64,000 nt of DNA from Eukaryota sp. GEM-RC1 (GCA_040285855.1 JAUFOQ010000003.1:2356001-2420000); one strand, 5' to 3'; counted from the stretch's first letter, positions 8,910-58,730 are shown. Notes: a model not told the origin generated them from the letters alone. Numbers and translations: made by a program.

Positions 8910-8933
8910 GAATTGAAGAACTGTGCTTCTGCA

Positions 8934-11900: not shown

Positions 11901-12021
11901 GGCCTTAAGTCAAGGTCAAAAGTCACGTGGTAAGAAGAATAACGAGGAACTAGATCCGAATGACCCTTTGCATTCCCCAGTTAACAATTTTTTTAAAAAA
12001 AGGAGATTATTGATTATTTAA
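8934..12021 (+). CDS. RECQL4: RecQ-family helicase, RECQL4-like (two ORFs joined by a frameshift near 10265)
   Basis: LPTGHGKT, SPLLALINDQ, DEVH, LSAT, ATSAFGMGVD and QQIGRAGR motifs; frameshift near GGGGAAA at ~10263. RecQ4 subfamily call is inferred. Confidence 0.85.
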
Positions 12022-22300: not shown

Positions 22301-23142
22301 TTGAATTGGTTGAAGTAAGTTTTGAATTCAGTTGGTGATAGAATTAAATTTGGTATTGCCTTTTGAAACAATTTGGAACAAACATTTTCTAAACCTCTAC
22401 CACCTTTGAAAACATAAGTTGACTTTACAACATTTCCCATGTCAAGGGAAATAAATGGTCCAAATTCGCTTCGCTTACACCATCTATAGAACCAGATGGG
22501 AATAAAAGGCCTGAATGGCTCATCCACATTAAATGTGGTGGAGATGTTCCAAAGTTTACATCGTGCAATTAAAAACGGGAACAATAATTTTTCAGAGTTA
22601 TAACTTATAAGCAATCTAGGCTTTTTCTCGGACAGTAAAGATATAAGACCATTAATCATGACTTCTTCTGATGGAAAAGTAATTGTTTGAACACCATCAA
22701 AATCACTTGTTTCTTTGGTACTGATGACAACAGTAGAAACGAAATTGGTGTAAATAAATGTGAGGACAATAAGAATGATTTGATCATCCTCCGCATTTGG
22801 TACCAGCTCTGGCCTGGACACTTCAATTTCTTCACTGATTGTTGGAACTTCAGCAGCCTCTTGTTCTTCAGAAACAATTTCTGTTGAAGATTCTGTAGTA
22901 GTGCATTTCGGAAGAGATTTCTTCTTAACATTGAAAAGGAGTGGTGTAAGTCGTTCACTATCGGTAATGACCGTTTTAAAATCAATAAGGCAATACAGTG
23001 GGATGTCATCTACAGAAGACAGGTGAGACTTCTTAAGAGGCGGGGGAAATATAGTGTCACTATGGTTCTGAGAGGATAAACCACAAGGATAAAGTGTATA
23101 CTCCGGGCCGTGAACTACTTCGGAAAGACTGACAGGAGGCAT
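19367..23142 (-). CDS. Fanzor1-type RuvC nuclease fused to an N-terminal PolB-like 3'-5' exonuclease domain and a C-terminal CCHC knuckle (~1260 aa, 3 frameshifts)
   Basis: TDGISCSL, IIGIDPN (RuvC-I, ~20730), GYGDWS, LVDEYRTSKSCSKC (~19970), CKRC..WNRDLNSSINI (RuvC-III, ~19690), CGECGQTGHDIRTC. ORFs 21760-23187, 21119-21778, 19768-21336 and 19367-19723 join by 1-nt shifts. Confidence 0.85.
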
Positions 23143-24063
23143 GGGAAGGAAATAACAATTGGCGACATTGTGATTCGTTCTCGTCACTTTCCTCTCGACA
23201 GGATTCAGTTTCCAACTTGATTGTTAGTTTGTCAACAGTTTACTTTCCACTTTACAACTCGGTTAATTTATGGCAAAACTTTGTCTCCTTCTCTAGATGC
23301 TGTGTACAACTATCCCACCTCCTCTCAAAAATTTTAGTCATTATACCTCACTCTCTCAGAATATCTGCATGTTAGTTTCATTCACGATTCTATCTTTTAA
23401 GATGCGCCTTTTCCGGTCTCTATTCAGGCCACAATGATCAGAAGTCTTTTGCCAGAAAGTCAAGACTCGTCTTCCTTTTAGAAACACTCAGTCCCCATCA
23501 TCAGGTCTTCCTTTGTTCCTACTTTTACTTCATTTTGACTTCTCACAAACACCTTGAAAACAAGTGTGACTACATCCAGTCCTCTCTTTAAGCATTCTAT
23601 ATGACTGATTATTGCTACTGTGCGATAGACCAATGATATACAGTCTTAAAAACCCAATGGTTATATTACTAAACAATTGGAAATTGCAGAAGCAACTGCC
23701 TTTGCGAGACAAATATATCGGTAGGTAATGATCCCTATTTGCAGCACACATTGGTTGGTTCTAATTAAGAATATACAATATTTATCTCAGATATTTAAAA
23801 TCATATATGGGAAACACAACTTCAACTTACTTTAATGGAAGAAAGAAGCTACCTCGATTGAATACGAAGGAAGTGAAGTTCTGCACTAGATTGTACTTCA
23901 GATAACCTTAGGAAGGATAATGGCATGTATAAAAAGACACAACAGACCAAAAAAAGTCGAGATGGGGGGAATTGTTGGGGTGAGGAGACAAGGAGGGAAG
24001 GGGAATTAAATTCACACAACTGAAGAGAAACCTCACAGAAGCTTTTTTCGTTTTTGTATCTAG

Positions 24064-30179: not shown

Positions 30180-31847
30180 TCACTGCCGCATTTGTAGCTT
30201 TCTTTTCAAAACCAATTGCTTCTGGTAACACTCATATGCTGTACCAAGAATAGAAGATCTGAACCAAACAAATATCAACAAAGTGGTTGGAATCCAAAAC
30301 ATTGGATGTAACAAAGGATTGAAATCCATTGGTCTTCCATCAAAAGGACCACACGTGTGTTCCATTGAAACAAAGACCAATAACAAAAGACCAACAAAAG
30401 AAAGCACCATGAGAAGAGAAAGGGAAAAGCTAAAGCGAGAGCGTTCCTTTCTATAATGATCTGTGGGTGGTCTCCAGAAGGTCTCTAGTAAGAATTTAAA
30501 TAACCTAAGAAACGCATAGACAATAAAGAAGGAAAGAATTGGATTAAATGGAGAAAAAGGAAGAGACAGAACAGTGAGAGCAAAGTAATAGATCAATCTG
30601 ACGGATAAATCATGGAAATCAAACTGTTTTCTCTTGTTGAATTTCTCCTCTTCAGACAAGTCCTTGTGTAATCCAAATAATTTAATAATTCCAGCTTTAA
30701 GAACTTCAACTCCAGTGAATATGGTACTATCTAAAACCAGTGTAATAATTAATAAATTGGTCAAATTTCTACTGGTAGCATTCAAGTTACAGTCGTCCTC
30801 ATCCTCTAAGTCGGAGGCAACATTGAAAATCAAAGGGGTCAAAAGAGAAGCTCTAAATACCAACATTAGAAGCAATCGAAGAGAATTTCTCTTATTTAAA
30901 TCAATCTCATTATACATTTTTAAAATAATCGACGCAATCATAGGAGAAAGAAGATTCAAAATGGCAACAGCAGAAGAAACAAGCAAGTTAATAGCCATTC
31001 CAAGAATAGACTCATCATCATCTGATTGATCTTCAATCAAAAATGATTGAACAGTGGCGAGACCACGAACACCAAAAGCACAAACCAAAGCAAATGAAAT
31101 GAACACAACATCAGCAGCATATCTGTATATTTTCAATTTTTTAGAAATTCCATATCGTTTTTCGTCTAATTTGACCAACCGCACACTCTCTTCTTGAATA
31201 GAAATATGGCAATTCTCCATCAATTCGATTGATTGATGAATCATTTGATCTTGTGCGTTGGCATTCCAATCAAAATCAAAAATCAACTCCATAAACTTTG
31301 GAGTAAGCACGGTATGACTATCTTCCAAAGCTTTTCTTCGATACATTAGTCTGCTAGCAAACACAGTGAAGAGACCAGCAAAGATGATAGTCATGCAGTA
31401 GCCCATGATGATGACATAAGACCAATGAGTCGCTCGTTCAGAGTAGATTGAAGAAGGTTGGAGGATGATAGGGTAGATGCCATCCATGGTTCCGAAGAGA
31501 GGGGAGTTGTCCTTGAGAAGATCTTGGATGTGGAAATAGAGGAGAAAGCCACAGTTGACACCAAGAAGGAAAATAGCACCTAGAATGGAGCGGCCAAGAC
31601 TAAAGAAGAAGCCGCAAGTACTTCCATATCGGCGTTCAATTTCTGGAATAGTTGTCTTTAGAGGAATGAAACACCAAGACAAAAAGGTTGTGAACCACTC
31701 TATCGCAGAGGTAATTGAAAGAGGTGATAAATCGGTATCATAAGAGTCTTCAATGTCCCTAGGGACAGACACGACAGATTCACTATCTGAAGGAGATTCA
31801 GACATTTTCTCAAAATAAAAGAATCCGGCTTTCAAGTCAAACTCCAT
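30180..31847 (-). CDS. Transmembrane channel-like (TMC) protein
   Basis: Many hydrophobic segments; IERRYGSTCGFFF resembles the TMC IEG.FGS.V.SYF motif; QFDF..LIY and CGPF near the C-terminus. Confidence 0.65.
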   Translation of the reverse strand: MEFDLKAGFFYFEKMSESPSDSESVVSVPRDIEDSYDTDLSPLSITSAIEWFTTFLSWCFIPLKTTIPEIERRYGSTCGFFFSLGRSILGAIFLLGVNCGFLLYFHIQDLLKDNSPLFGTMDGIYPIILQPSSIYSERATHWSYVIIMGYCMTIIFAGLFTVFASRLMYRRKALEDSHTVLTPKFMELIFDFDWNANAQDQMIHQSIELMENCHISIQEESVRLVKLDEKRYGISKKLKIYRYAADVVFISFALVCAFGVRGLATVQSFLIEDQSDDDESILGMAINLLVSSAVAILNLLSPMIASIILKMYNEIDLNKRNSLRLLLMLVFRASLLTPLIFNVASDLEDEDDCNLNATSRNLTNLLIITLVLDSTIFTGVEVLKAGIIKLFGLHKDLSEEEKFNKRKQFDFHDLSVRLIYYFALTVLSLPFSPFNPILSFFIVYAFLRLFKFLLETFWRPPTDHYRKERSRFSFSLSLLMVLSFVGLLLLVFVSMEHTCGPFDGRPMDFNPLLHPMFWIPTTLLIFVWFRSSILGTAYECYQKQLVLKRKLQMRQ

Positions 31848-31858
31848 CCATAAATACC

Positions 31859-34800
31859 ATGCTCTTTAAACTATCACCGTCACATCCCACCAAAAGTGGA
31901 GCAATCTGCAAGTGGAGATGTGACAGTAACATGCTGGCCGTTTCTCTTCCTGGTTCTGTTGCTCTTTGTGATCGTCAAGGGTCTTTTATCTCTTCTATTT
32001 CCACATCCAAGGACACGGCTTCAATTGACTGGGAATGTCATGGTGACTTTCTCTCAGTTGTTGTCCCAAATCAACCAAATGTTATCATTTATGAAACCTC
32101 AACATCTACTCACCTTACTGTACAAACAACAAGACCTATTACGTGTGCTTCTTGGTCCCCCAATTCTTCCCTACTCATCATGGGAACTGATAAGGGTACT
32201 TTTCTTCAATACAATACACAAACAAAGAGACTTAACAAGACCATTGGAACCCATCAAAAGCGCATCTCTTCTTTATCCTGGTCATCTTCCAACTTACTTC
32301 TTGCTTCGTCAGACGATAAAACTGTCTCTGTCACCAAACTTCCCTCCTTTGAGACCAACAGAGACAATGTCGTTCTTCCCTCCCCCTGTACTCAACTCTC
32401 TAGCCTCTCCTACAAGCACAAAGGCCAGATAGTACACCTTGGAGCAGCTCTGTGTAAAGGTGACGTCTATTCTCTTTGATTTGAGTTCGAGTTCTACTGT
32501 TAAAAAGTTGGTTATAGAGGATCTCAGAATTTCTACAATGTTGTTTCTACCTGATCTATTTGCTGTATTTGGAAGTAGTGATGGCCATGTTACTGTAGTT
32601 AAACTAAAACATTCAAACGAGCCTCACGATATGCAACTAGAACATGTTTTACGTCATCATTTACTTCGAACAACTCCAGTACTTTGTTTGGATTACTCCC
32701 TAACCCTCTGTAAGTTAAATGACGGTGTTTTGAGTGACCAAATGGGTCAAATAGCTATAGTTTATGAAGAGACAGTAGAGATCATGTCGACTAATGATTG
32801 GTCTGTGATGCCACCCAATCACATTCAGCTTGTTGAAAGTGAGGGTAGCTTCATAAACGCTACTTGGGCTAAGAATGGTGGAATTCTGACTGTTGCTACT
32901 GTATCAGGTTACGTTTATGGAGAAGTCACGAGAGTTCCCGCTCTAGTGTCGTCATGTGATTCTCTTGTTGCTTGTATGTCGTCACTATCAGCAGTAACTG
33001 TTCTGGATTGCCTCCTGCCACCAGACTTACCCCCAGGGTCACCCCCCGTTACCGTTCTAACTGCTTCTCTTCCTCAAGAACCCGCTCAAATTAGGATAGG
33101 TTTAGGTTCAACTTTGTGTGCTTTTATTAATTCAATGGCCTGGTTTTTAAAAGGACCGTTGATTAATGAGCTACCTGCAAATGAAACAGGAAAGATGGAG
33201 GTTGTGTATAATCGAGAGTACATGACAGTCATTAATGACGTCATGCTCACTACTGATTACGTGGCAGTTACTCTTGGAAATCGAGTTTTGTTACATTCTT
33301 TTGAAGATGATGGATTTGAACAGTGGTTTCCGGTCAATCAATCACAATCAATCACTCAAACTCGACTTTCCAGTGAGTTTTTGGTTTACTCAACTGAAAA
33401 AGGAATACATGTTTTTTCCTTGGTGTTTCGTCAAATGGTTTCAGAAGTACAGCTGCCGTCTCCAGTTATTAACTTCTTTCCTAATCCACAACACTCAAGG
33501 TTTGTCGTGATTGATGGTGACGATCAAGGCTATTTTGTCAATCCAATCACGTCATCAGTCAAGGATATTCCTGATTTTCCTTCTGGATCGACTGCTCTTT
33601 TGACATTTCCGATCCCTCTTTTTTCTCTTTAATTGATTCCTCATTTGTTGCCCACTCCTATGTTTATCTGCAATACTCAGTGGATGGTGAAAAGATTCAT
33701 AAAGTCAAAGATCATACACAGCTTTCTGCCGCCTCAATCCCGCTTACATTAATTAATGGGGAGATTTTCTCCTTTATTCCCTCTTTTGGGCTGTCTTCTC
33801 AGACTCTTTCTTCCCATTCTGCTATTGTTGCTTCTCTTGGTCGACAATCTCAGGGTTTCCTACAACTATTGGAGCTAGGTAGACTTCGAGAAGCTTGGAA
33901 TGTTGCTCTACAATTGCAGGAGCGAAAGTACTATAAGTTGTTACAGGATCGAGCTACCTATTTGCTGGACTTGTCGATTGCTGAGCTGGCATCACGTCAT
34001 CTGGGAGATGCTGCCACGTGTCTAGCTATTAGGTCAGTAGTAGGCACTGAAGATTTCAATGATTTAGCCGCTTTTTCAGCTATTCTCATGTCTGACGTGA
34101 ATAAAGCAATCAAATTGATTGAAAAGGCAAGTAATCGTGATGAACCCCTTCAATTGGCAATTGACCTTCATCAATGGGAACGAGCTCTACAGTTGGCAAG
34201 TTATTCAGATCCAAACAAGATTCCAATTATTTGTTTAAATTTTGCTGTTGAATTAGAATTACAGGAGAAATTTGAAAGAGCTATAACCTACTTTAAAAAA
34301 AGCTCTTGAAGGTTCTGAAATACTTCAAAAAAATCAGATTCAAATGTGTGAAAGTGGAATTATTAAGTGTGAATTAAGAAAAGGAAATGTTGAAGCTGCT
34401 GAAATAGCTTTGAAGTCTTCATCTAAACAATTAGCTAAGGAATGTGCGATAATTCTGAAAGAAATGAAACAATTTAATTTCGCAGCTAAATTATTTAAAA
34501 GAGCTTCTGATTTTGAAGCTGCTGTTCAGTTGTATTTGGAAGTCAATGAAATTCAAGAAGCTGCCAAATTGATTGATGCGGTACACAGTCAAAAGTTATT
34601 GATTGATTTCGGTCACAAAGCAGAGCAATTTGGATTATTTGAAAAATCTGCATCTGCATATCTGCGTGCGGAATCTACTTCTGATTATGTTAGAATTCTT
34701 TTATCTGACCTTGAAGAACCAGAAAAGGCTTTTAAAATTATTCGTAAAACTGCTGATCCTACTGCTGCTGCAATTGCCTGTGAATTCTGTCGAAAAAATG

Positions 34801-35867
34801 ACAATATTGTTACTTTAATTGAAATGTTGTTTATTTGTGGTGAAGCTGATGAAGCTTGTGAACTTGCTTTAACTCATGGTCATGGTCATTTGGCTGCTGA
34901 TTATTATAAGACTCATGGTCATTATCACCGTGCTCTCAAGCTCTATCTTCAATCAAATGCCATTGATGACGCGATCGATGTCGTGGCATCCAGTAATAAT
35001 GACCTTTTGATTAGAACCATCTTTGACTTTTTAATGGGAGACTCTGATGGAAAACCAAAGGATGTCCACCATTTGTTCACTCTTTATGTTAAACTTGGTC
35101 ACTTTAACGAAGCTGCCAAGACTGCTGTGATCATTGCTGGACAAGAAATTGAATCTGGTCATTATTTAGAGGCTAGGAACACATTATTTAAAACTTTAAG
35201 AAAAGTTAAAGGTTTATCTGCTGGCTTTAGACTACCCAACAAACTGCTGTCTATGTTAAAGGTCTTACACTCCTACATTGTTGTTAGAATGTTAGTTAAA
35301 AGAGGGTTACACGAGGAGGCTGTGATTCTACTCGTATCTGTGGTTGAAAGTGATGTGTTCATCCAACATCGTATTTCTATGTTAATTTCTTGTGTAATTG
35401 AATGTCAGAAAGCTGGTCTGAGGGAAAGTGGCTTTAATTATGCGAGTCGATTGATGCAATCAGATTATGTTGATCACGTACCCAGTCAGTATAGGTCAAA
35501 AATAGAAAAGATCATTCGAAAACGTGATAAATCCCAAAAATCGGGAATTCTAGATCGAACTTCCCCTTGTCCTTTCTGTGGTTCAGAAATATCTATTACT
35601 TCATCTTCTTGTTCAAATTGTCGATCTCTGATCCCATTTTGTATAGTTACTGGTCAGAAAGTTGTTAGAAATGATTTAACTTGCTGTCCACACTGTGAGT
35701 TTCCAGCAATTTATTCTCAGCTTGTCGAACATGTTTCTCACTTTCAGTCTTGTCCAATGTGTTTAGAAGAACTAAGTACTGAGACTTTGGAAATTATAGA
35801 TAACGCAGAGGAGTATTTAAATGATTTAACTGATTGGTTTACAGGTTCTACACAGAAGAGTTCTTGA
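31859..35867 (+). CDS. WDR19: Intraflagellar transport protein IFT144/WDR19 (four ORFs, frameshifts near 32470, 33600 and 34300)
   Basis: N-terminal WD40 repeats (GTHQKRI), TPR-like solenoid, FLMGDSDGKPKD, LHSY, IECQKAGLR and C-terminal CPFC..C..C..IPFCIVTG..CP.C.FPA..CPMC. Confidence 0.9.
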
Positions 35868-36056
35868 TGGGATGCTGATTTATAAAATTGTAACTTTATA
35901 CATGTACTTTACTTTCTAATCTGTTTTTATACAATGACGGTTGTTTTGATACGAAATGAACAGACAGATCAGCTTCAGAATGTCTTCTAATCATTCTTGA
36001 TAAGTGTTACTAGTAGATGTAGATGTCCGAAATAGTTCATCCTCTCTACAGTCTCA

Positions 36057-36762
36057 ATGGTTCCCGTCTCAAGCAAGATCCTCTTTGCTGCAATAACAGG
36101 GCTCAATGAACTGGTATTTCGACATGTCATTGTCCACATTGGTGTCCCCGTTTTCTTGTTTCTCTTGACAATCTTTTCGCTGTATTCTGACTCAATAGCG
36201 TTGAGACGTATAAATTCTTTGTGCCATGCTGTGCTACATCTCTCTGGTGCTGCTATGTACTACACCGTTCCTCATTTCTCCGTATGTCATCATTGTCATT
36301 TGATCATAGTCAAGTCATCCGGTGTGGTTAACTATTCTTTCAGGACCTGTTATTGTTGGTATTTTGTTTATCCTTGAATCCATCAGATTTTCTCCCAAAC
36401 TTTGCTATAGAGTTCATCGATCTTTAAGACGTAGAACCCTTGGTCTAGTTATTGCTTTATGGTCACTTGTCTCTTTCAGTGTTACTGGTCCTTTCCTGTC
36501 TCGATCTTTGAACAAGCTAACACCCTTTGGATGGCCATCATGTGCATCATTGTTTTCCATTGGTGTTGTTTTAACTGCTAATCATAAAGGAACAAATGGG
36601 TCTTCTATTTTGATGGTTCTGTGTGTTTTTGGCATGATCATGGGAATTTATTCAACAATGTTTTTACACCATTTTGTGGATTTTGTTTTGATTTTGGCTT
36701 CTTTGAGTGGATTAATTGTGATGTTTCATGATTCCACTTCTAGTAAGAATAAATCAGATTAG
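36057..36762 (+). CDS. Multi-pass membrane protein of unknown function, one 28-nt intron (36282-36309)
   Basis: Removing GTATGT...CATAG joins ORFs 36057 and 36322 in frame (..PHFS|SSHPVWLT..). Confidence 0.65.
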
Positions 36763-43441: not shown

Positions 43442-46223
43442 CTACATTAGAAGTAAGTGCATTCCCATAATATCTTCAAGAGAGAGATTTCCTGGTCGAA
43501 CATCCAAACCAACAGGTTTTTCAGTTTCACCGCGAAGTCCTGTGCTGGTGTATGTAGTAACTTCCATTATTCCTTCTTCAGTTATGGAATACTGTACAGA
43601 AATTGTAATAGAACCAGCAGGTGCAGGAGACAAAGGACCAACAGTCAAATCGCAAAGTACTTCCCCCAACCCTTCAGTAAGAGCTTGTTGTTCGACTTTT
43701 GCAAAAATATCGACAGAGCTACCCCCAGCTACTGCAATGGCACTGTTCAAATTCACAGCTTGTTTGGCAAGTGCAACAGAATCAATATCATCAACTCTAT
43801 TCTGGGTTAACCAGTAGAGATAGTTCAATTGATCTTTGAGGCTGGGATTTTGATTAGAACACCACTCATAAATCGTGGCTGGTTTGTTTTGACACGTTCG
43901 ATATCGTTCATGATTATACAACAGATTAATACAACACTTGAGTGTGGCCTTTGCCCAAGTTCGAACATCTGCATTAACCAACGTTTCATCTTGATCATTG
44001 GAAGACATCAATGCTAAATTCCAGTGTTTAAAGACTTTGATTAAATCGTCCAAAGTAACTGTACCAGCAGCATCAACAATAAATTTTCGGGTGTTTTCAT
44101 CAATTGTGGTACTCCCTTTCGGATCATCGACAATGAGATAGTTCTCAGCAAACATACTGACAGAAGATCGTTGAGTATTCCAAGGAAGTAATCTAGGCTT
44201 AAGGGGGATAAACTTGTCAGGAAGAACAACTACAGTTCGAGGTGTATAAACTCTGTCGAATATGTGATCAAGCTGATTATTAATTTCACTGTCACTATGA
44301 GCTTGGAACAATGGTGGTACCAACAAAGAGCCTTCCTCACCACGAAGAGCACTGCGGAATGTGAAACACACATGTGTGGGAAAATCAGAACCAATACCGA
44401 GAGTAGTGACTTCGAACTTGGCATTGATCGTTTTGAGTTTATCGTAGACTAACTGTGTTTGTCGAGAGAATTGGTTTTTAAAATCATCATTGATCACATC
44501 CATACCATCAGAGACGAGTAATACTCGATATATAATGGTGTGATTCATACCAGAATTTGATGCATAATCATCATGAATAAAATCTGCAGTTTAGTTTAAG
44601 GCTTTAATGATATCAGCTCTGCCTGACGAAGATGAATTTCGCAGATCTGATAAGGATTTGGTTGTAGAAACTAAATGGTTGAACAGTACAGCACCAGAAA
44701 ATGTTGAATTGTCACCTAAAGAGGAAAGCTTCGAATATAATCGTTCAGTCAAAGTAGAAAAATGGCCTCTCATCGAAGAAGAACGATCAATAACTAGAAC
44801 GTAACGGTATTTTACCTTCATACACAACTGTGTAAGGGCAACATCAGAAACACGAACAATCATTTTAGGTTTTTCAGGAAGATGAGTACATTGGATTACA
44901 CTTACAACAGCATTTTGTTGTCCATCAATGGTGGTCTTAAAAGTCTTGCGGATAGAACATTCTTTTAAGGGAGTACCTTTTTCTAGGACCATTTCCAGAC
45001 CATCATGTACAGGTGTCACAATTGATGATCCAAGAACGTCATGAAGAATGATGTCTGTACCTGATTTGCTAGCCAAAATGGCTGCTCCCAAAGCAACAGC
45101 TTCATCACAGTTAGGTCTTTTTAGTAGATCAACGCCAGGGAAAACAGACGATAAGCGCTCAGCGATACCAGGTAGTAGAGTAGAGCCACCAACAAGAAGA
45201 ATGTTGTCAACGCTTTGTGGAGAGATTCTATTCAACTCAAGAAATTGATTCAAGTTTTGGAAAACCCTGTCGGAGAAAGGAGCACATATAGTTCGAAGCT
45301 CTTGTTGAGTTAAAGTAAGTTGAGAATTGAGAAACGAGAAGGAATGTTGAGGGACTTGTGATAAGTAGCATTTAGCTTCTTCCACTACTTGTCTCAGACA
45401 TTCAAGGTCGGATTTCTCCAACCCATGTCCGACACGAGTCTTGAAATAGTCAACGAGAAGTCTGTCAACAACAGAGCCACCCAATGTACGATCACCTCCT
45501 GTATGAATGACCTGAACTTCACGTGAAGTAAGATGGGCAAGGCATAAATCAAACGTCCCTCCTCCTAAGGTGAGTATTCTACAAAAACATACCTAAATCA
45601 AAAATGAGGACCCTTTTTCCTACCAATGATGGGTGATAATACAGAAACGCAACTGCTGCGGCCGTTGGTTCACACACGAGTCTTGGGTTTTCAAATCCTG
45701 CAATGATGGCCGCATCTTTGGTAGCCTTGCGTTGTCTCTCGTCAAATTCATAAGGAATGGTGATATACACAGACGGAAATGACTGTTGTCCGGTGGCTTT
45801 AGCAGCCACAGATTGGAGCTTCTGCAATATAACAGCTGATATGAATTCAGGAGTGTAGTGAGTGTTTTCGCCATCCTTGTCTATCATAATGGAAAGTCTA
45901 TTCTGAGCGTCTAAATCGATTTCATATGGAAGATCTCTTAATTCACGGGCAAGGTTGTTGTCTTCCATCAGATTCCTTCTTAGATCGGATGGGTTGGACG
46001 AGATGTCTAGATGACGGCCAATAACGCGTTTAACCTGTGTAACAACATTTTTAGGGTACTTTCTTGCATCTCTCAAAGCTGGCTTGCCACATTTGGGTTT
46101 GGAAGAGTGGAAACTTACGACAGACGGAACAACCTTATTTGACCTGTCGCAAACGATTATTAGCCCATTATCATCACAAATAGCGACCAATGAGTTGGTT
46201 GTTCCGAGATCGATTCCGATCAT
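43442..46223 (-). CDS. Hsp70-like protein with a vWA domain inserted in the SBD; 28-nt intron 45565-45592; in-frame TAA at 44591-44593 (possible pseudogene)
   Basis: GIDLGTTNS, EPTAAA, FDLG|GGTFD after splicing, LVGGST, DEAVALGAA; vWA VIDRSSSM, LVSDG, LGIG; SBD tail LSPAPAG..ISVQYSITEEGIMEV. Confidence 0.8.
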
Positions 46224-47649: not shown

Positions 47650-50090
47650 ATTTTAAGGCTCATGGATTTCATGCCAAAGTTGAACCTTAATTTAGTATGT
47701 TGGGTCCTTTTTAATTAATAATTCTCGTCGAGGTGACATATATGGTCCTTTTGTTGATTCTAGGCAAATTATCCTTGATGTTACAACAGTACATCCATGT
47801 GCTCAAACTTATGTTGATGGTTTAAATTCAAAAGGTTTCATTCGTCTAGAAACAGCCAAAAACGTAAAATTGATTTGTATTCCAAAGATGTTGCTAAACT
47901 CAATCAAAATTTATAGGGATAAAATTTTTTCCCCAAAATGATCCAAAATGTTACCAGATCCCCTTCAATAATTTCAATTTATCAATTTGGAAATATTTGT
48001 GAAAATTGTGAAAGAAAAAACATCTACTGTAGGAGATTTGATCTTAGATTTTGGAAAAATCGAATTGTGTTTGCTATCGTTAAAGGTATGGTGACTTCTA
48101 TATCTAGCGCTTTATTATCTCTGGGCAGACATTATGAGGACAAGGTAGGTGAGAATTTCCAGATAAGGAATCTGGACTTTGAGGATATTGATCGGGATCG
48201 GAAAAATATATTGCAATATATTTCTAACATAAAAAATCTACAATAAATATATTGGGATACTGCTCTTTGAGGGATATCTTGTCTTCTCGGATTCTCAGGT
48301 CGTTGTTGCTCGGATAACAACTGTTTCAGTTTAGGGATCAATAAGCCCTTCTGGATGGAGGAAAGACTCTCAATGTTGTTCCAAAAAAACATCAGTTCAA
48401 AAGAGGTATCAAGAGGGGGATCTTGAGCAATTGGAGGATCTAACACAGCAATAGATGGCTCTGGGTCCAATTGCCATTGAGGATGGAAATTGTTGACAGA
48501 AAGCTGCTCATCAGCAGCGAGGAGTGATTGGATCTGTGTAGCAAGCGGAAGTCCTTTTGCAGTAGGAATCAAAACCTTAGGAATCAAAAGGAGCAAAACC
48601 TTGTTCAAAAGCCCATCGTCTGAGTGTTTGCTCTAGATCGTCTCGAGTGTCAAACTCGTAAAAAGGTGGCTTTGTAATTCGAGGATCACGTAACTTGTCA
48701 ATTTCCCTTCTCATAAATAATTTCAATTAAGCACAATTTTGTTGGTAACAAAGACTCTTCACTTCCTTCTCATTGTTTCACTTCTACTTCTTTTGGTGGT
48801 ATTGGTTTCACGAAAGCTAAGTGATGGTGCCTTTTGGGGCCTTTAAGAATTTTTTGTTATCCTGTGTTATGGAAAACGAAAGATTTTTTACTTCACTCAT
48901 CTTGTACATGGTTAATTAGTCTTCAAACTTTAATTGATAGTCTTGACTCCAATTTGTGGTTAGAGTTATTTCCTGTTGGGGTAACAGAAATTCAGCAGAG
49001 AAGCATTTTCTCTTTGCCTTTGTGTGTTCGCAAGTTACAGAAGAAGTTTGTTTTGTTTCACGAAAGCTTGGACTTTAAAAACCGTATTAGCTTGGCTAAG
49101 ACTAAGAGTCCCGCTTTTGGTGCTTTTTTGAATCATATTTCTTCAAGCGCTGCGTATTCATTTGTTTCTCGTTTGCCAAGAAAATTTTGTTTTAATCTTA
49201 AGGATCATGAATGGCTTATAAACATGAGACTTAGGTTAGGTTTATGGCCTTCAGGTCTTTTGAAGCATTCTCCATGTCTTTGTGGTCGTTCAAAGGCTTC
49301 AAATTTTCATCATTTAGTTAACTGTCATCAATTTATTATTTTAGATCAATTATTCACAACAGTATCCGTGATACATGTTTGGATATGTTTAAGGCTAATG
49401 GTTTTCATGGACAAATTGAACCTTTACTTGCTAATCTTTCTGATCAGCCAAAAGTTGATAGAAGTCGTGGTGATTTGATTGGTCCTTGGTTATCTTGTCA
49501 GGAAATTATCATGGATTTCACAACTGTTGATCCTTGTAATTCAAGATCAATTTCCAAAATTTTTGATGATGATTTTTCTGCTCTTGAAGTGGCTGAAAAA
49601 GGAAAAAATACAAAGTACTGTCACTTAACTAAGAAATTGAATGTTGACAGGTACAATTCTTTTGTGTTTCAACCTTTGCGATGTCGATATACGGTAATAT
49701 TGGACGAGCTGCACAAGGTTTTTTAACTTCCTTTGGTAAATTGTATTCTGAGTACAGTAAAGTTTTCAATGAAAATTTTTGGTTGAGCAGGTTAACGTTT
49801 GCGTTGTTTCGTTCAATGCCAGATATTTTAATTCAATTTTAGGTAAGTTGTTCGGTGATGGACAGAAGGATCATAGTTTAGATACTTTAGTTAGTGCCTG
49901 TTAGTTATTAACTTCTACAAATGCATTTGTTTCACTGACTGATCATAAACCCCGTTTTTTTATTTAGCACAATATTTTTCCATTATATATTTTTCACCCA
50001 ATCAACAGGGGGTTTTTAGCATTAGATTTAGCAAGTTTTTGTTGGAATCATTACAGACAACAATAGACATAACACAGCCTAAAGAATCGT
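47650..50090 (+). mobile_element. Mosaic of CRE-like non-LTR fragments (RT thumb, Zn knuckle, REL)
   Basis: FGGIGF, CLCG..HLVNC, RGDL..DFTTVDP..AEKGK..KY. Pieces match 330-540, 870-990 and 2340-2600 in mixed orientation. Confidence 0.65.
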
Positions 50091-53000
50091 AAACAAAACT
50101 GTTTCTTAATAAAGTCAGAATACGCTTTAGTTTTGCGGATCTCTTCAAGAGGTTCCCAGGTGGGCTCGGAAGCACCGACCCACTGGACGAGTGCCCGTTG
50201 ACGTTGGGTGTCAATCTGCTGGACCTCTTGGACGAGATGTTCGGCTCGATCTTGAGCAGCAATAGCAGAGAGATAATCAAAGTTAGTGGATTGGGGAGTG
50301 AAAGGTTTCAGGGACACTATAGAAGCGAGGGTCTCTGAACCGGTCAAAAGATTAAGGATCTTGACGTGATTCCGACTTGAATAAACCTTAGTGATAAGAT
50401 AAGGTCCTTTCCAGGGACTATGCAACTTGGCGGTTCGGTCAAAAATACGGAGAACAAAGTTGCCTTCCTTGTACTGGTGTACAGCATCTTCACTCTGTGG
50501 TAAAATCGGTGGGTTGGAGCTTATCTCTGCCTTCTCCCACTTTTCGATGAGAGAGGCGGATACACTTTCTACGGTTCTTAGCCAGGAACCTTCAGGAATT
50601 CGTGAGTTGGTAAGCTTGTCAAGGATTTTCGTGGGGGACTTCGAGGATCGATAGTTGCTTCGGTCCCGAAGATCATCTCAAATGGCGTGAAACCAGTTCG
50701 GCGGCATTTCTGACAGTTAATCAAGAGTTGTGTCATCGGCAGGTAGCCGGACCAGTTGTCGTAGTCGTTGAAGTCTGCAAGTAATTTTCGAAGGGTAAAG
50801 AGCACGTCACGATTTCTTCGTTCGGCGACTCCGTTTGATTGGTGGAAGTGAGGGATTGAAGTTGTTATGGATATGTTCAGGAAATCGCATAGTTCCTCAA
50901 AAATATGGTTTGCGTATTCCGGTCCATAAACGGAGTAGACGGCGGCAGGAACACCAAAGATGGCACAGACTTTTTCAAGCATGGCATATGCTACTTCAGT
51001 GGCGTTGAGCTTGTTCAGTGGGACTAATACAGTGAACCGAGAGAAAGAGTCGACAAAGACAACAACATATGCGTTGCCTTGTATGTCTTTTGGAAGACGG
51101 CCAATGGTGTCGACATGGAGGCTTTCAAAAGGGCGCTTGGCAATCAGGTTTCCGGTGGAAGGTATGTCGTTTCGGGACTTGGGAACAGGGGCATTCTTTT
51201 GGCAAGAGGGACAGCTGTTCAAATGTTCTATAAGGTCATCTTTGGCTTCGATCCACCAATAATCAGATGATTCGAGGGCTTTAGAGCTAAGAGAGAAATT
51301 AGGGTGTCCACAATGAGCGAGACCGTGGATGTGCAGTAGTACTTCGCTTCGTAGGTTACGAGGGACAATGATCTTACCTCGGTAGAGGTACAGATCGAGT
51401 CCTTCTTTCAATGTGACATGACCTTCTTCAGTAAGGTTGTCAATTAGCTTAACGAATTCTTCGTCTTCGTTGGATTTTTGGGCAGCTTGGATCTTGGACA
51501 TCCAATCAGCTCTTGACTCTTTGAGGGTTTTCAGAGTTTGAGGAAATAGGGATGCACTGGGGGCATAAAAGAGAGGATCAGGGGATCTTCTAAGTACGCT
51601 GGAGGCGTCGGCTCTGGTCTTACGAGGATCTAGAGTGGTCACAAAAGGGGGTGAGGCTTCTTCCTGGCACGCTGACATGGGAGTATGATAACTAAGGGGG
51701 TCAGAAAGCTCATATGCGTTCGGTAAAGTTCGCCCTCACTGGCTTCAGAGTCGGTGGAGGCGGAGAGTAGATCTTCAGTACAACTGACCACGCGGGGCTT
51801 AAAGGTTTTAACGTGATGGATTACGTCGCGTTCTTCGTCGGAAGAAATCTCGAAAGAGGAGTCATCTAAATTCAAGTCGGACTCTGGGGAGAATTTAGGA
51901 ATCTTAGATTCTGGTGAATGAATCGAGTTCACTGATTTAAGATAATACCGAGGCTGACCAGTTTCGAGGAGGTCATCACGTTTACGACGACGTTCGTCGT
52001 CGCTAGAATCAGCTTGGACAACGTGGCCTTCAATCAATTCCAAACCTTGTAGGTGCAAATGAGCTTCGGGATGAAGTTCAGTGTAGTATTCAGTGGAGGC
52101 TTAACGGATGAGAGCACGAGTGGCGGATACAGAAGTATGTTTAGCTCGTTCCAGGTGGATACAGAATTTGGTGAGAGGAGCCTTGACTAGTCAGTTGCCG
52201 CTGGGGCACTCCAGGAACATGGTCTGACAGTGAATGGGTGTCAGGTGTTCCATACGGGCAACAGTATTAGGAGGGTGAGCCAAGAAATTAGGGCACTTTG
52301 GTGCTAAGGGACCATGAAGAGTCACAGGTTCCATTTTGAACCCGAAAGTATAGATTAGGTTCTTGGTTTCGGATTCCTTCCATCTTCTATCGAGTCTTTG
52401 AGCAGGTGATTCATCATCAGTTTTCAATAATAGGGCGGCATCGTTGTAAACCATAGGGGACATACATGCGGAGAATTGCTCGCAGCATAGCAGATAGAGA
52501 TCAGAGGAGAGCCAATGGTCAATGACTACTCCACTGCAGCCTTTGATTAGACAAGGCAATAATTTATCTTCTTCGAGGATGGCTGGGGTTAACTTTGTGG
52601 TACGGACCGAGTCTTTTCACCTTCAGAATCAGCCCTAGGCTGACAAGACTTAATTACCAACTCAGCAGCGCGAAGCTTGACTCGCTTGGTAGGGGAGATC
52701 GCGAGGCAAGGAACCTTGGGCCGGCCCTAACACCAAGTCACTCATGGATCCTACCTTCGGCCATGACTGAGATGCATTTATAGCGCTCGTCGTCAGGTCA
52801 ACTTCGGGCTTCTCCTTGGGGGTTAGTCTAGACAACATATCCGCGAACAAATTAGACTCTCCGTCTACGTGAAAGACTTCGAAGTCTAGGGCACAAAGTG
52901 TGGGAAGCCAGCGCTTCACAATTCTGGACTTCTCGGGAGAGGTAAGGAGGTAGGCCAAATTCTTGTGGTCACAGTAAAGTTTTAAGCGGCGGTTGAGAAG

Positions 53001-56000
53001 GAGATAACTAAGATTGGGTTGAGTAAGTGTAGCCACAATTGCGTATAATTCTTTTGAATTATAGGCCAGTTCTTTGGCTGTCAGTGAGCGTTTTGAGTAG
53101 AAAGATACAGGGGCGAGCTTGAGATCTTGGAAGTTGGGGGCAGACTGTAAGTCAGATGGAGTGAGTTGTCTCCAGATAATTCCAGATACGGCGTATTCAC
53201 TGGCATCAGTAGAAATGATAAGAGATTCGTTGGGTTGAGGGAGGTCAAGTGAAATTGAGTTAGCTATCAGTTCTTTGATGTCTTTGAAACAGTTGGTGTG
53301 TTTCGGGGTCCAGCGTTTTCTTATCAGCGATTTCATAATTTTTGTTGGTGATTGGGATTTTGGCTTTCCCTCATCTTGCTTTAGCAATTCTGTTAGAGGT
53401 TTGAGGAGACACGAAATGTTTGTGAGCCAGTCTCTGATGTAGTTGATGGATCCTATGAAGCTTCGCAGCTCATGGATATTCTCAGGAATAGGGATTGAGA
53501 GAATGGCATCGATCCTATCTTGATCGATTCTTCTCGTTCCATTCTGGAAAATGCTTCCCAGAATTTTGATTTCGGAATCTTTGGTGAGGAACGTACATTT
53601 CTTCTTTCCTAGCTTAACTCGGCTTTGGACACAGCGGTCTAAAAATTAATGAAAGGAAATTTAGAAAGTCTTTTTCGTCTTTGGCAGCGACATCAAAATC
53701 GTCAAGGTAAATAAATACATTAGGGATATCTTTGAAGATATCGCACATCGTGTTTTGGAAGAGGGCAGGCACGTTCTTTAGGCCAAAGGCGGCGCGAGTG
53801 AAACGTACAGCGCGGCCGGGAATCTTGAGGGTTGTTTTGTCAAAATCTTCTTCACAGATTTTGAGCTGTCAAAACGCTCTTGGTAGGTCAAGGGTAGCGA
53901 TAAAGTTGCCGTTAATGAGAAATTCAATAATGTCTGAAATGCGAGGGAGATTGGCTTCGACATTGATGGTTTTAGCATCGACTCCATCAGAGCCAGAATA
54001 ATCGCCGGTCAGTCGGGGTTTGCCGTGAGGGCAATCAGCAGGGACTTCTTCAGCGAACCCAGCAGAGGTTAGTTCATCGAGGATTTCGTTAGCGATTTCA
54101 AGTCTAGCGGGATTAATCTTCCTGGGCGGCTTGTTCACGATGGAGGACTCATCGTGATATTTGAGGGACATAGGAGGAGCGTCGATTCCGTCGGGATGAG
54201 GGGGACCAAAAGCGTCTTCTTTCGATTTCAATAATTCTAAAAGTTTCTTTTCCGTTGAGGAAGGGAGTTCAATTCTACATTCATCAAAGGATGAATCAGA
54301 GGTCTTGGCGACAGCAGCTTTTGGAGGCGACTGAATTAGATGATCGAAGTCGTCTTCTGCGGTTAATAAAGTGTTCCGTTGTTCATTGATTCTAATACTT
54401 AGGCCTTCGGGAGTGAGCAGACCTAGACATCTTAAAATGTCGCAACCAATTAATGGTTGGTTCGAGCCTTCTAAGAGGGAAGCTTAACTTCGAGGTGGAT
54501 TCTTTTGGGGGATTCGTTTCCCATGAGAAGTGAAAGTTCGGTATGAAATCGTCCAAGGCTTCTAACGATTCGACCGTCGGCTACTTCGAATTCACTAACT
54601 TTGGATTTGTCAATAGTCCCGTGAGTGGGATCTACAAGATCGGAGGTGATGCAGGATTTAATGCATTCTGTGTCAATTAGGCCACGGATTTCCTCTGGCC
54701 TACTAGCACATCTAGTTCGAGGAGAGGAGACTTTTGGGAGACCTGGAAGACCTGGAAGAGGCCTTTAGCGGAGGTGCGAGAGTATTTCGGGCTGTCAGAA
54801 TCAGAGTCAGATAATAGAGAGCTAATATGAGCCTTAGGGGCGTTGATAGGTTGGGAAACCTTGGCGGTGTTTCTATTACGGAATTTATGGTTCTTTGGCA
54901 TCGTCGGATTTCTTGGGTTGTAGGGTCGTCTGGCAGGAGAGGAGCGGCATTCGTTAGCGTAATGTCCAAGCTTATTGCAGTTGAAGCAAGTGATAGAACA
55001 TTTGTCGGGAGTGCTGGGGCTAGATCGTGGAGTGGAAAACTTGGGAGTAGTTGGTGTAGAAAGGTTAGAACGATGAGTGGAAGGATAAGGAGAAGGGTTG
55101 GATCTAGGAGATCTGATTGGAGTTCAATAGAAGTTGCGGTTTCTGGAGAAGTTATTTCTTGAGGATTGGGGACGCTCTTGGCGTTGAAGATGTTCGACAG
55201 ATTTGAGTCGAGAAGAATGTTCCAAGTGAGTAGTGAGAAGAGAGTAGGACTCTTGAATGAGTTCAGAAAGAGAAGTAATCTGTTTGAAGTCTACAAATTT
55301 CTTGAGAGCAGCGGAGATAGACTCAGGCTTGAGCTTTTAAGGAATTCGAGCATAAATTGCTTTTCGGGTATGGCAAGTTTGTGTAAGCGTCTTCGGAGTT
55401 TAGTAAAGACAGCGACATAGTCAAAGAGACGAGCAAAAGGGTCACGGATTTTGTGATCCATAGCGACGGTAGAGAGTAAGCGGATAGCTTGGTCAAGTGA
55501 CTTGACTCGAGTGAGATCAAGGAAGAACTCCCACAGTTGAGGTTGAGAGTTCAAAGAAGAAGGAGAAATAAGTCGAATAGAATTCATCACGTCTCTGGAT
55601 ATGTGAAGTTGGAAGTCATTCGGAGGAGAGGGATCGTCATCTGGGTGATGAGGCGAGGTAGCGGCAGTTTCTTCCGCTACATCAGTAGCCTCAGCGGGTA
55701 CAGCAGTGAGGTCTTCATGAGCGGCTTCTAATTGTTCCCGTAGTTTAGGGGACAAATGGAGAGAGAGTAGGGCTTCGAGGGAAGATACCGGAGGTTCTTC
55801 AGCAGGACGGGGTTCTTCGGCTGGGATATCAAACAGATAAGTGTTCAATATCTCGTTGTCTAAGTCTTCCTTGGCCACGGCGTAGGCAGCAAGGTCATCA
55901 ATCCAAGAGAGGATTTTGTTCGACTCCAGGTTTCTTAGGATTGGTATCTGAGTTCGGATTCCACGCCTTCCGAGGGCGGAATCCATGATGGTTCTGCGAC

Positions 56001-56100
56001 GGTCTGAGTAGTCGTCTTCATCAAAATCTTCATCGGCGAAGAGGTCTCTGGTAGGGCGGAGAGACATGGCAGCGGCGGCATTCACTAGGCGGCGGCTGGA
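50090..56100 (-). mobile_element. Decayed Ty3/Gypsy chromovirus-like retrotransposon (gag-PR-RT-RH-IN-chromodomain); no LTRs found
   Basis: PR GLIDTE (~54670), RT LDLPRAF and YLDD (~53705), RNase H TDAS, integrase H..H..CPSC, HVD and NGVAER, chromodomain LVQWVG..TWEP; multiple stops and frameshifts. Confidence 0.9.
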
Positions 56101-56137
56101 TACGGATTGAGAGGATGGATGGCTTCCATCTTCAACA

Positions 56138-56196
56138 CATAGCGACTAAAGAGTTCGTTGTTCCAAGATCGATTCCGATCATGAAGAGAAGATTTT
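56138..56196 (-). pseudogene. 5' fragment of an Hsp70 paralogue (MIGIDLGTTNSLVA)
   Basis: Closely matches ~46181-46236, including the upstream AAAATCTTCTCTTC. Confidence 0.75.
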
Positions 56197-56223
56197 GGAA
56201 GCACAATCATGCAGTGCCATGAC

Positions 56224-57862
56224 CATAGATGGGAAATACATCTTCATGCCTCTGTATTAATACAAATACAGATACAAATACAACGAATACAAATACACTA
56301 TTTCTATCACGTGAGTGTATTTCGATTGTATTTCATGTGGAAACATATGTGTAACTTTGATAAGACCATTGAAAATAATCAAGTATACTATGAAGTGGTA
56401 GTGCGAAAAACTTTATACGTTTCATCGTTTTGACGCTGAAAGTAGTTGAACTTTGGGTTTATACTATAGAAACTCAACAAAATCAAGTCTTAAATGATAA
56501 GTCTTTGATGAGATTACAGTCGGTGCTTGTAAACAAGTGCATTTAAAGAAGCCACTAAGTGAAGTTTCTCCCCATATTTCTCAGAAAATTGACGAGAAAT
56601 AAATACCATGCCCCTTGACTCTCCATTTCAACGAGCACCTGTTCTATAGGAGGTTGTCGGAGATTAAGTTGTTGCGCTGATATCAGCGCAGTTGAGATGT
56701 AAACAACATAGTGGGAGAGGAGGCAAGTGTTCTTGAATCGGTAGAAGTCACAACAGAATCAGCAATGTAAAAAAAGTCTTATTGTTATCTTATTGTTTTT
56801 CTGACATTCAACAGTAAATGTATTGTCTGGAATGATATCTTATCTTATTTATTGGTTATCTTGGGTCAAAGCAATAAATATATCTTCAATAACGACAGTA
56901 ACAAATCACTAACAAGAATTTGGTCATATTCATCAACTTTAGCCTGATTGAGGTGTGAGGATACTTTATTAAATTTTTCCAATAGAAGGTTGATCCCACA
57001 GATCAACATTGTACAACAAGAACAGTTGCTTTCCTAACGCTTTTGAGTTCAGATTTGGTTTAGTGTTTCCTGAAGTCCTTCTTAGCTCTACTGAAAAGCA
57101 TCCCAGATGTCAAAGCTTTATTCGGTACCCAATAAGGTAACCTTCCTACAAAACTATGAGCATCCCATATTCATTTCTAGTTACAAATATACAATATAAA
57201 TCTATTATCCTATTACATTTATAATAATAAATTCATATATTTAAAAAAAATAAATCTAGATATAATAAATCTTGATTAGTTCGTTGCTGTTTACGTTTGT
57301 TCAATCTTTTATTTCAGCCACCGTGACTGCATGCTCTCTGTTACTTTGGAGTTCAAATGCTTCAACACAATTCTACTTTATTTTAAATTGGCATCAAGAT
57401 AAAATCAGGTTACAGAAAGAAAATGAATGTTCTTGAATTATCTTATCTTATTGAAATATATCGTATATTGTTGAGTTTTCTAGATAAATATATTGTGGGG
57501 AGAGAGTGTCACAATAAGATAACAATAAATATATATATTGTTATTGAACAATATATGAATTTGTTTTACATTCTTGAACATAATTGGATGAATTGGAATT
57601 TCCTGGACACACACACAACTTCATCCTATCATTGTACGTACTTTTGCAGGAGAAACATTGTATTTGGTACTCAAACAGTATTTTTATCACGTGAATCTAC
57701 ATTGAATATGCAAATAGATAGAATGAATAAGACTAAATAGTAATAACTAAATGCTGATATTAAAAATTCCAAAAAATACAAATAAGGGCTTTGTATTAAT
57801 ACAAATACAAATACAAAATACAAAATACACAGAATACATGTATTCTGTATTTCCCATCTATG
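56224..57862. mobile_element. hAT-type non-autonomous element
   Basis: 17-bp TIR CATAGATGGGAAATACA; imperfect TSD GCCATGAC/GTCATAAC; subterminal AATACA repeats. Confidence 0.75.
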
Positions 57863-57869
57863 GTCATAA

Positions 57870-58730
57870 CTGTATATTCTTTCTTTGCTCTATAATCTGT
57901 TTGTATACAATGACGGTTGTTTTGATACGAAATGAACAGACAGATCAGCTTCAGATTGTCCTCTAATCATTCTTGATAAGTGTTACTAGTAGATGTCCGA
58001 AGTAGTTCATCCCCTCTACAGTCTCAATGGTTCCCATCTCAAGCAAGATCCTCTTTGCTGCAATAACAGGGCTCAATGAACTGGTATTTCGACATGTCAT
58101 TGTCCACATTGGTGTCCCCGTTTTCTTGTTTCTCTTGACAATCTTTTCGCTGTATTCTGACTCAATAGCGTTGAGACGTATAAATTCTTTGTGCCATGCT
58201 GTGCTACATCTCTCTGGTGCTGCTATGTACTACACCGTTCCTCATTTCTCCGTATGTCATCATTGTCATTTGATCATAGTCAAGTCATCCGGTGTGGTTA
58301 ACTATTCTTTCAGGACCTGTTATTGTTGGTATTTTGTTTATTCTGGAATCCATCAGATTTTCTCCAACACTTTGCTATAGAGTTCATCGATCTTTAAGAC
58401 GTAGAACTCTTGGTCTAATTATTACTATCTGGGCACTTGTCTTCTTCAGTGTTACTGGTCCTTTCCTGTCTCGATCTTTGAACAAGCTAACACCCTTTGG
58501 ATGGCCATCATGTGCGTCATTGTTTTCCATTGGTGTTATTTTAACTGCTAATCATAAAGGAACAAATGGCTCATCTATTTTGATGGTTCTGTGTGTTTTG
58601 GCATGATCATGGGAATATATTCAACCTTGTTTTTACACCATTTTGTTGATTTTGTTTTGATTTTGGCTTCTTTGAGTGGATTTATCGTGATGTTTTATGA
58701 TTCTACTTTTAATAAGAATAAATCAGATAC
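57870..58730 (+). repeat. Duplicate of ~35895-36760 including the membrane-protein gene (ATG 58027, intron 58252-58279)
   Basis: Near-identical sequence; this copy lacks one T in a homopolymer at ~58597, causing a frameshift. Confidence 0.9.

Follow-up and report, generated by a model that had tools for sequence, protein, structure and literature searches.

An Hsp70 gene interrupted by a vWA-containing insert lies on the minus strand at 46223-43442 of the window, by which we mean the whole 64-kb stretch of DNA analysed from Eukaryota sp. GEM-RC1. The host is an anaerobic protist. The available text of the genome preprint describes Skoliomonas sp. GEM-RC as a free-living metamonad from soda-lake sediment and its genome as a nanopore assembly with short-read correction (10.1101/2023.05.03.539051). 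The entire gene (43442..46223) comprises 917 codons and a TAG, and its encoded order is the Hsp70 ATPase domain, strands 1-4 of the substrate-binding domain (SBD), an insert of 400 aa and SBD strands 5-8, with no lid at the end. One GT-AG intron of 28 nt (45565..45592, minus strand) splits the first Gly of DLGGG, and its removal (45592-45565) restores this motif. The spliced frame of 918 codons contains stops at codon 535 (TAA, 44593-44591) and codon 918 only. Residues 1-534 are identical to KAL0246191.1 (P0004) of Eukaryota sp. GEM-RC1, which equals the spliced product, and the locus is regarded here as a probable pseudogene copy. Three paralogues in the same genome, namely, P0001 (908 aa), P0002 (917 aa) and P0006 (873 aa), are open through the insert, and a search for such intact relatives had been proposed in an earlier note on this DNA.

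The nucleotide-binding domain occupies aa 1-376 (45068..46223, minus strand) and contains IDLGTT (aa 4), VKR, EPTAAA, DLGGGTFD, EEAK, GGST and DEAVA. Thus, the aligned motifs of the actin-like ATPase domain of the Hsp70 family (PF00012) are present, including phosphate-1, the catalytic Lys, EPTAAA and DLGGGT. In the window copy, P0002 and P0006, the motifs with the Lys, Glu, Thr and Asp residues (VKR, EPTAAA, GGGT.D) are all kept. The Pfam HSP70 model matches both window exons (E 4e-43 and 1e-30) and P0002 (E 1e-80); its match spans aa 1 to about 436, breaks off and resumes weakly near aa 845. The best PDB matches were Ssb1, DnaK, Hsc70 and BiP. At two positions where ordinary Hsp70s have Arg, the window copy and P0002 have Cys and Leu, and P0006 has Cys at one of them; these changes at the nucleotide site may alter ATP handling. 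The ATPase domains are 31-38% identical to those of ordinary Hsp70s and 31% identical between the two fusion subfamilies. They are placed on the eukaryote-type Hsp70 side of the ATPase-domain tree (100/99, long branches) and are free of DnaK-type insertions, and the monophyly of the fusion ATPase domains was neither recovered nor rejected (p-AU 0.116). The linkers are degenerate across the fusions (IILHD, PVLND and IELIE).

The interdomain linker (DIILHDV) and SBD-beta strands 1-4 occupy aa 377-436 (44888..45067, minus strand), with IILHDV at aa 382 and KGTPL at aa 406, as placed by alignment, a half-domain profile and a structural model. SBD-beta strands 5-8 follow the insert at aa 845-900 (43496..43663, minus strand), with EVLCDLTVGP at aa 845 and VQYSIT at aa 867, and were located by alignment, profile and four modelled strands. 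For the SBD profiles, 73 ordinary Hsp70/DnaK sequences from viral contigs were used, and each score was compared with 500 shuffles. For the upstream half (strands 1-4), the window copy scored 5.6 bits (reached by 4/500 shuffles), P0002 8.4 bits (0/500) and P0006 36.6 bits (0/500). For the downstream half (strands 5-8), the scores were 10.3, 14.8 and 32.8 bits, respectively, and none was reached by any of the 500 shuffles. The profiles, the alignment and the model thus place SBD-beta strands 1-8 in order, interrupted by 400 aa. The earlier note had read a full ATPase domain, a linker and the first SBD strands before the insert and the remaining strands after it; every motif it quoted was recovered in place, and both parts of this description stand.

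In the alignment, strand 4 ends in xQG before the gap and strand 5 starts with L-G-x-F after it; the loop that contains the gap is taken to be L4,5 of the DnaK topology. According to the available text of PMC8215388, client release from DnaK is slowed by the lid, which also stabilises the inner loops L1,2 and L4,5; an insert in L4,5 would therefore compete with the lid. No match to the lid profile was found in the six frames of the 64-kb window or in P0001, P0002 and P0006, thereby ruling out a lid hidden downstream in another frame. The SBD-beta is followed by only a 17-residue stub and TAG (43442..43495, minus strand), which resembles the start of lid helix A. The window copy thus departs from canonical DnaK/Hsc70-type chaperones in lacking the alpha-helical lid, as the earlier reading had it. 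In what we take to be the DnaK numbering, the groove and docking positions F426, Q433, I438, K414 and Q442 are kept or conservatively changed (I438 is Val in the window copy), with K414 and Q442, both docking positions, retained in P0002, P0006 and the window copy. In the same presumed numbering, Ala or Leu replaces V436, and the lid-latch Arg467 is replaced by Ala or Val. Strand 8 was seen only in P0002 and the window copy, since the SBD register is lost beyond strand 6 in P0001 and P0006 terminates after strand 7.

The insert comprises aa 445-844 (43664..44863, minus strand) and occupies the loop that joins SBD strand 4 to strand 5; its homologue is the N-terminal ~400-aa region of a stand-alone vWA family. 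It consists of a vWA domain, a small beta part and a helical bundle in an AlphaFold model. A vWA fold and a helical region within ~380 aa had been reported earlier; the fold and the region hold, and the length is corrected to 400 aa. The Pfam vWA model alone matches weakly (E 0.089 for the window copy and 0.007 for P0002); the domain is identified instead by a family profile, which matched the vWA chain 5a8j in the PDB (E 6e-6), and by the structural model (VIA Z 17-19). The vWA domain (aa 463-650; 44246..44809, minus strand) carries VIDRSSSM at aa 468, LLVSDG at aa 559 and TLGIG at aa 598. Its MIDAS comprises DRSSS (44788-44774), the Thr position, which is Ala (44617-44615), and the later Asp (44509-44507). 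The DxSxS motif and the later Asp appear as DRSSS and SDGMD in the window copy and as DRSTS or DRSGS and SDGxD in the paralogues. The MIDAS Thr is Ala527 in the window copy and Thr in P0001, P0002, P0006 and 7/7 other relatives; Thr and SDGxD were present in all 10 relatives examined. Accordingly, the built-in metal-dependent adaptor proposed in the earlier note may apply to the open paralogues, in which DxSxS...T...D is kept, and not to the window copy.

The model covers aa 360-903, read through the stop, and was computed from a 50-row alignment (12 insert-bearing rows and 38 ordinary SBDs aligned across the gap) chosen by eye among three (A5-A7), with P0010 left out; a single-sequence prediction of P0002 was uninformative (pLDDT 33). 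The mean pLDDT was 75 and the pTM 0.63. Confidence was mostly above 90 in the vWA domain, 61-87 in the helical bundle and 59-74 in the beta part of the insert; it was mostly below 50 in SBD strands 1-2, 61-82 in strands 3-4 and 72-84 in strands 5-8, so that the downstream segment does model as SBD strands. Many vWA chains aligned with the Rossmann-like vWA fold (VIA Z 15-19, rmsd 2.6-3.3 over 160-180 residues). VIA-align ranked ITIH, ArnB and 4fx5 first (Z 18.4-18.8), three of the chains aligned past the vWA domain into the helical bundle, and Foldseek agreed. No Hsp70 SBD chain was among the fold-search matches listed by VIA-align and Foldseek, and these lists were filled by vWA chains. The short beta elements and helical bundle (aa 651-844; 43664..44245, minus strand) are placed in the model as in ArnB and ITIH1. 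The ArnB/VIT-type alignments span model residues 84-462 (Z 18.4-18.7, rmsd 4.2-7.0), with a beta part that is short and modelled at the pLDDT of 59-74 given above.

A search of the insert among 1.84 billion representatives returned 9 matches at E up to 0.001. These were P0006, two fragments, the product of the window gene itself and five proteins 937-1143 aa long that matched through their N-terminal parts. P0002 aa 445 aligns to Met1 of the stand-alone protein P0007 (KAL0222356.1, Eukaryota sp. TZLM3-RCL; E 2e-36), and the alignment of P0006 reaches P0007 aa 377; the insert (window aa 445-844) is therefore identified as the 5' part of a P0007-like gene. The identity to this donor family is 29-31% over the N-terminal ~315-380 aa, and DxSxSM, T[DN]I, SDGxD and G[IV]GxxFPT are common to both. 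On this comparison, the vWA domain and the 'helical region' form one module taken from the stand-alone family. The members of this ~1000-aa family are P0007, P0008, P0010, P0011, P0013 and a protein of contig L001 (3-2474), the last of which has an open frame in the ciliate code alone. The insert tree, computed from 11 inserts, unites the three fusion rows with the fragment P0009 (93/93) and places P0007 as their sister (96/98). The AU test rejected a clade of window copy, P0002 and P0007 (p-AU 0.023) and did not reject a clade of P0006 and P0007 (0.069). A single capture from a skoliomonad donor is the simplest reading of these trees; it is favoured, not proven.

Further donor-family relatives were sought in other collections. 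None was confirmed in viral contigs with P0008, P0010, P0006 or alignment A3, and none was found in the phage collection. One of 239 pattern matches in metagenome contigs was a donor-family relative, and, when a word index was queried with the family alignment, P0007 and two generic vWA proteins were the only matches. In the viral fold library, the best matches were giant-virus vWA proteins of 440-1200 aa at 9-18% identity, for example Pandoravirus A0A2U7UE81 (E 5e-14, 13% identity). The fold look-alikes of the donor family are likewise from giant viruses and, weakly, the baculovirus 94K protein. The C-terminal part of the donor family has the conserved motifs INPW and HxALL and a C/H cluster, with weak Pfam matches only and no NCBIfam match.

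In P0001, P0002 and P0006, the insert begins after xQG and ends before strand 5, and the MIDAS is complete. P0006 and P0002 share the insertion site at 29% identity. The divergence between the window copy and P0002 is uneven. Identity is 358/376 (95%) in the ATPase domain, 35/60 (58%) in the linker and strands 1-4, 88/128 (69%) in the N-terminal part of the vWA domain, 54/60 and 169/192 (88-90%) in the remaining insert and 30/55 (55%) in strands 5-8. None of 5000 permutations was as patchy. The divergence between paralogues is therefore concentrated in the two SBD halves and in that half of the vWA domain which carries the MIDAS. The two SBD halves are distant in sequence yet equally divergent, which fits diversifying recognition surfaces; two gene-conversion tracts could equally produce this patchiness. 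Uniform decay after the stop does not explain the pattern, and faster evolution of the window copy relative to P0002 was not significant (22 vs 13 derived changes in the insert, p 0.18). Judged by these sequences, the fusions form a small, fast-changing and diverging lineage-specific Hsp70-vWA multigene family.

The internal TAA (codon 535; 44591..44593, minus strand) falls within a vWA helix at a codon that is Ser in P0001 and P0002. The earlier note had suspected a dead copy on account of this codon, and this suspicion gained support. TAA is a terminator in this organism, where a 1323-codon ORF with 45 Gln contains 0 TAA/TAG. An alternative genetic code with TAA as sense was ruled out, since TAA, TAG and TGA all end long window ORFs and the 1323-codon ORF is free of TAA and TAG. 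No GT-AG pair of 18-75 nt removes the TAA in frame, which rules out such an intron, and the lone GC-AG intron that would keep the frame open (39 nt) would remove residues that align collinearly with the paralogues. A second gene model of the same genome, P0005 (534 aa), differs from the window product at 1/534 aa and ends at the same residue as the TAA-cut product. Stops arise from 344/8244 (4.2%) of single substitutions in the CDS. Three changes in the window copy lie at conserved sites (Thr527Ala, Gly436Cys and Gly848Cys), and the 917 codons contain no other stop or frameshift. Because of the internal TAA and the loss of the MIDAS Thr, the window copy is probably a pseudogene, and we hold with good confidence that the TAA is a real stop.

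A living window copy is a doubtful alternative, in which the TAA is a systematic long-read error in two assembled copies, or is read through, or the 534-aa product is a working ATPase-only Hsp70. In conserved genes of the window, three or more homopolymer runs carry a single-base break of the frame; the assembly thus contains errors, and the TAA could be a further one. These breaks, typical of long-read errors, were noted in WDR19/IFT144 (31763-35864), a RecQ-like helicase (8880-12018) and a kinase (13227-14755), and one WDR19 break fits a 28-nt GT-AG intron instead. The lack of any further stop or frameshift, the 88-90% identity to P0002 over most of the insert after the stop and the existence of an ATPase-only Hsp70 ORF at 6264-5083 also favour a living copy. 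However, the errors observed are indels and not substitutions, two gene models stop at the identical residue, and the further changes at conserved sites include the MIDAS Thr.

Other features of the window concern additional Hsp70 pieces and mobile elements. The second divergent Hsp70 ORF (5083-6264, minus strand) encodes 393 aa, ends right after the ATPase domain (Pfam E 1e-93) and is 35-39% identical to other Hsp70s; no SBD or lid was found downstream of it. A sixth piece of the family is a 16-codon 5' fragment of another paralogue (56135..56196, minus strand), which shows 4 synonymous differences and 1 non-synonymous difference and breaks off at the start of a Ty3-type retroelement. This element (50051-56135, minus strand; RNase H and integrase matches) begins with TG directly after the fragment, and neither a second LTR nor the remainder of the cut Hsp70 was found within the window. 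Just upstream of the fragment, a 1.6-kb stretch between perfect 22-nt inverted repeats (56219-57867) is a probable DNA transposon. An 870-bp duplication (94% identity) of a piece of a membrane-protein gene occurs at 35891-36759 and 57867-58728, each some kb from an Hsp70-vWA start. Frame-broken ORFs at 19370-23223 (minus strand) match the exonuclease domain of family B DNA polymerases (E 2e-9), adjoin a transposase-like tail and may represent a mobile element.

The domain architecture was compared with known systems. Canonical Hsp70/DnaK proteins (PF00012; Ssb1 3gl1/9r9o, DnaK 9dvi and Hsc70 1yuw) share the ATPase motifs, the linker and all SBD-beta strands in order; the window family differs in the 400-aa insert between strands 4 and 5, the absent lid, the identity of about 31-38% and the several diverging copies. 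ArnB/ArnE (VWA2), the ITIH heavy chains, the Catenulispora vWA protein 4fx5 and the Sec23/24 core share a vWA domain followed by beta elements and a helical bundle. The VIA Z was 18.6 for ArnB (8s05_B; 238 aligned, rmsd 5.5), 18.7 for ITIH1 (6fpy_A; 294 aligned, rmsd 4.2) and 18.4 for 4fx5. ArnB combines a vWA domain with a MIDAS ion, a split beta-sandwich and a regulatory helical bundle, as described in the available text of PMC12852372. In contrast to the insert model with its short strands, the ArnB sandwich is eight-stranded; the proteins of this group are 10-14% identical to the insert and contain no Hsp70, and the shared fold shows no function. The stand-alone ~1000-aa vWA family is the donor of the insert through its N-terminal ~400 aa, whereas its C-terminal ~600 aa, with conserved Cys/His motifs among them, are missing from the fusion.

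Bacterial fusions with Hsp70 and vWA in one chain form an ESM Atlas cluster (60 members, HSP70 100%, VWA 100%), and their Atlas features score of 0.88 is a lead only. They are at most distant relatives, because none was among the 9 matches of the insert search. A tblastn search of plasmids with P0006 gave 478 records, none covering 80%, and the 76%-cover record was an Hsp70-GrpE-kinase fusion without vWA. In the Halomicrobium plasmid NZ_CP044130.1 (L082:3959-7441), an 1160-aa protein annotated as grpE is arranged as SBD-beta, Hsp70 ATPase, SBD-beta, GrpE and protein kinase, and its gene lies upstream of a CRISPR-looking repeat array. As far as the available texts describe them, the MoxR-vWA chaperone/co-chaperone conflict systems and the HSP70/GrpE theme of GAP1-N2 systems (PMC7159879) and CoCoNuT CnuD (PMC11090510) pair an NTPase chaperone with a peptide-binding vWA in conflict settings. 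However, these are prokaryotic operons with vWA and Hsp70 on separate genes and no insertion inside the SBD. The available texts of PMC7824862 and PMC3709807 held nothing further on an Hsp70-vWA fusion, and the Hsp70 text of the genome preprint (10.1101/2023.05.03.539051), as far as available, does not mention one. A literature search conducted mostly outside subscription journals found no description of a vWA domain inside an Hsp70 SBD; the Hsp70 phylogeny of the genome preprint (Supplementary Figure 5) may list these genes. The fusion is confined so far to one protist genome and is a real, apparently undescribed variant of Hsp70.

Taking the evidence together, we favour the following reading at a probability of about 0.55: the locus is probably a dead copy of a lineage-specific, lidless Hsp70 family in whose genes the 5' portion of a stand-alone vWA gene follows SBD strand 4 and precedes strand 5, with intact members being likely target-specific, ATP-driven clamps. 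In such members, we infer that the two SBD halves would refold and close into one two-layer beta-sandwich with a usable peptide groove. The insert would fill the loop normally stabilised by the lid, making insert and lid mutually exclusive. The MIDAS would bind an acidic side chain of a folded target via Mg2+, and this docking would supply the targeting and holding power given by the lid and the J-protein in ordinary Hsp70s, while the lidless groove would grip an extended target segment. ATP binding would dock the SBD on the ATPase domain, leading to release or remodelling of the target. In the window copy, a probable TCA-to-TAA change would halve the vWA domain. The greatest differences between the paralogues lie in the recognition parts, and the family gains and loses copies; these features point to variable targets, possibly in conflict or stress, rather than housekeeping folding.

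Two rival explanations dispute the function of the intact members. An uncoupled scaffold or holdase is improbable, though less so than non-functional chimeras: nucleotide binding would be poor or non-allosteric, and the protein would act as a vWA-targeted holdase, a decoy or an exchange-factor-like partner of ordinary Hsp70s. The low identity of the ATPase domains to ordinary Hsp70s and between the fusion subfamilies agrees with such a role, as do the two changed Arg positions, the degenerate linkers and the loss of the lid; against it, VKR, EPTAAA, GGGT.D and the docking residues K414 and Q442 are all kept in the window copy, P0002 and P0006. Neutral chimeras, in which a transposon-rich genome moved a piece of a vWA gene into an Hsp70 gene and the copies decay without function, are distinctly less probable. 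The gene does sit among Ty3 and MULE-type remains, a stop is common to two gene models, another copy was cut by a retroelement, and P0001 and P0006 have short or aberrant ends. Yet the reading frames of P0002 and P0006, at their 29% identity, run uninterrupted for 870-920 codons, both proteins take up the insert at one shared site and have a complete MIDAS, and the 5' fragment of the cut copy differs by mostly synonymous changes (4 of the 5).

A wider proposal, drawn by analogy, is speculative and on balance unlikely. The Hsp70-vWA fusion would be a recurrent, undescribed machine design reached independently in more lineages than one (bacteria and this metamonad), in which the Hsp70 motor loads and releases a metal-dependent MIDAS clamp, comparable to the action of MoxR AAA+ ATPases on their vWA partners. 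Here, the capture of a module that giant-virus proteins share would have given a free-living protist a diversifying, immune-like recognition family.

The favoured reading of ATP-driven clamps has implications for Hsp70 biology, and its value rests with the open paralogues (KAL0246814.1 and KAL0248816.1) and not with the window copy. The family also provides a handle on the ~1000-aa vWA family of the skoliomonad, the ciliate-code contig and further assemblies, with its fold look-alikes in giant viruses. The Hsp70 SBD sandwich is normally continuous and capped by a lid, whereas this natural family tolerates a 400-residue module in an inner loop without a lid. A built-in docking domain in place of the lid and J-protein would be another way to aim the Hsp70 motor, and whether Hsp70 allostery can drive a MIDAS site could be tested directly with this family.
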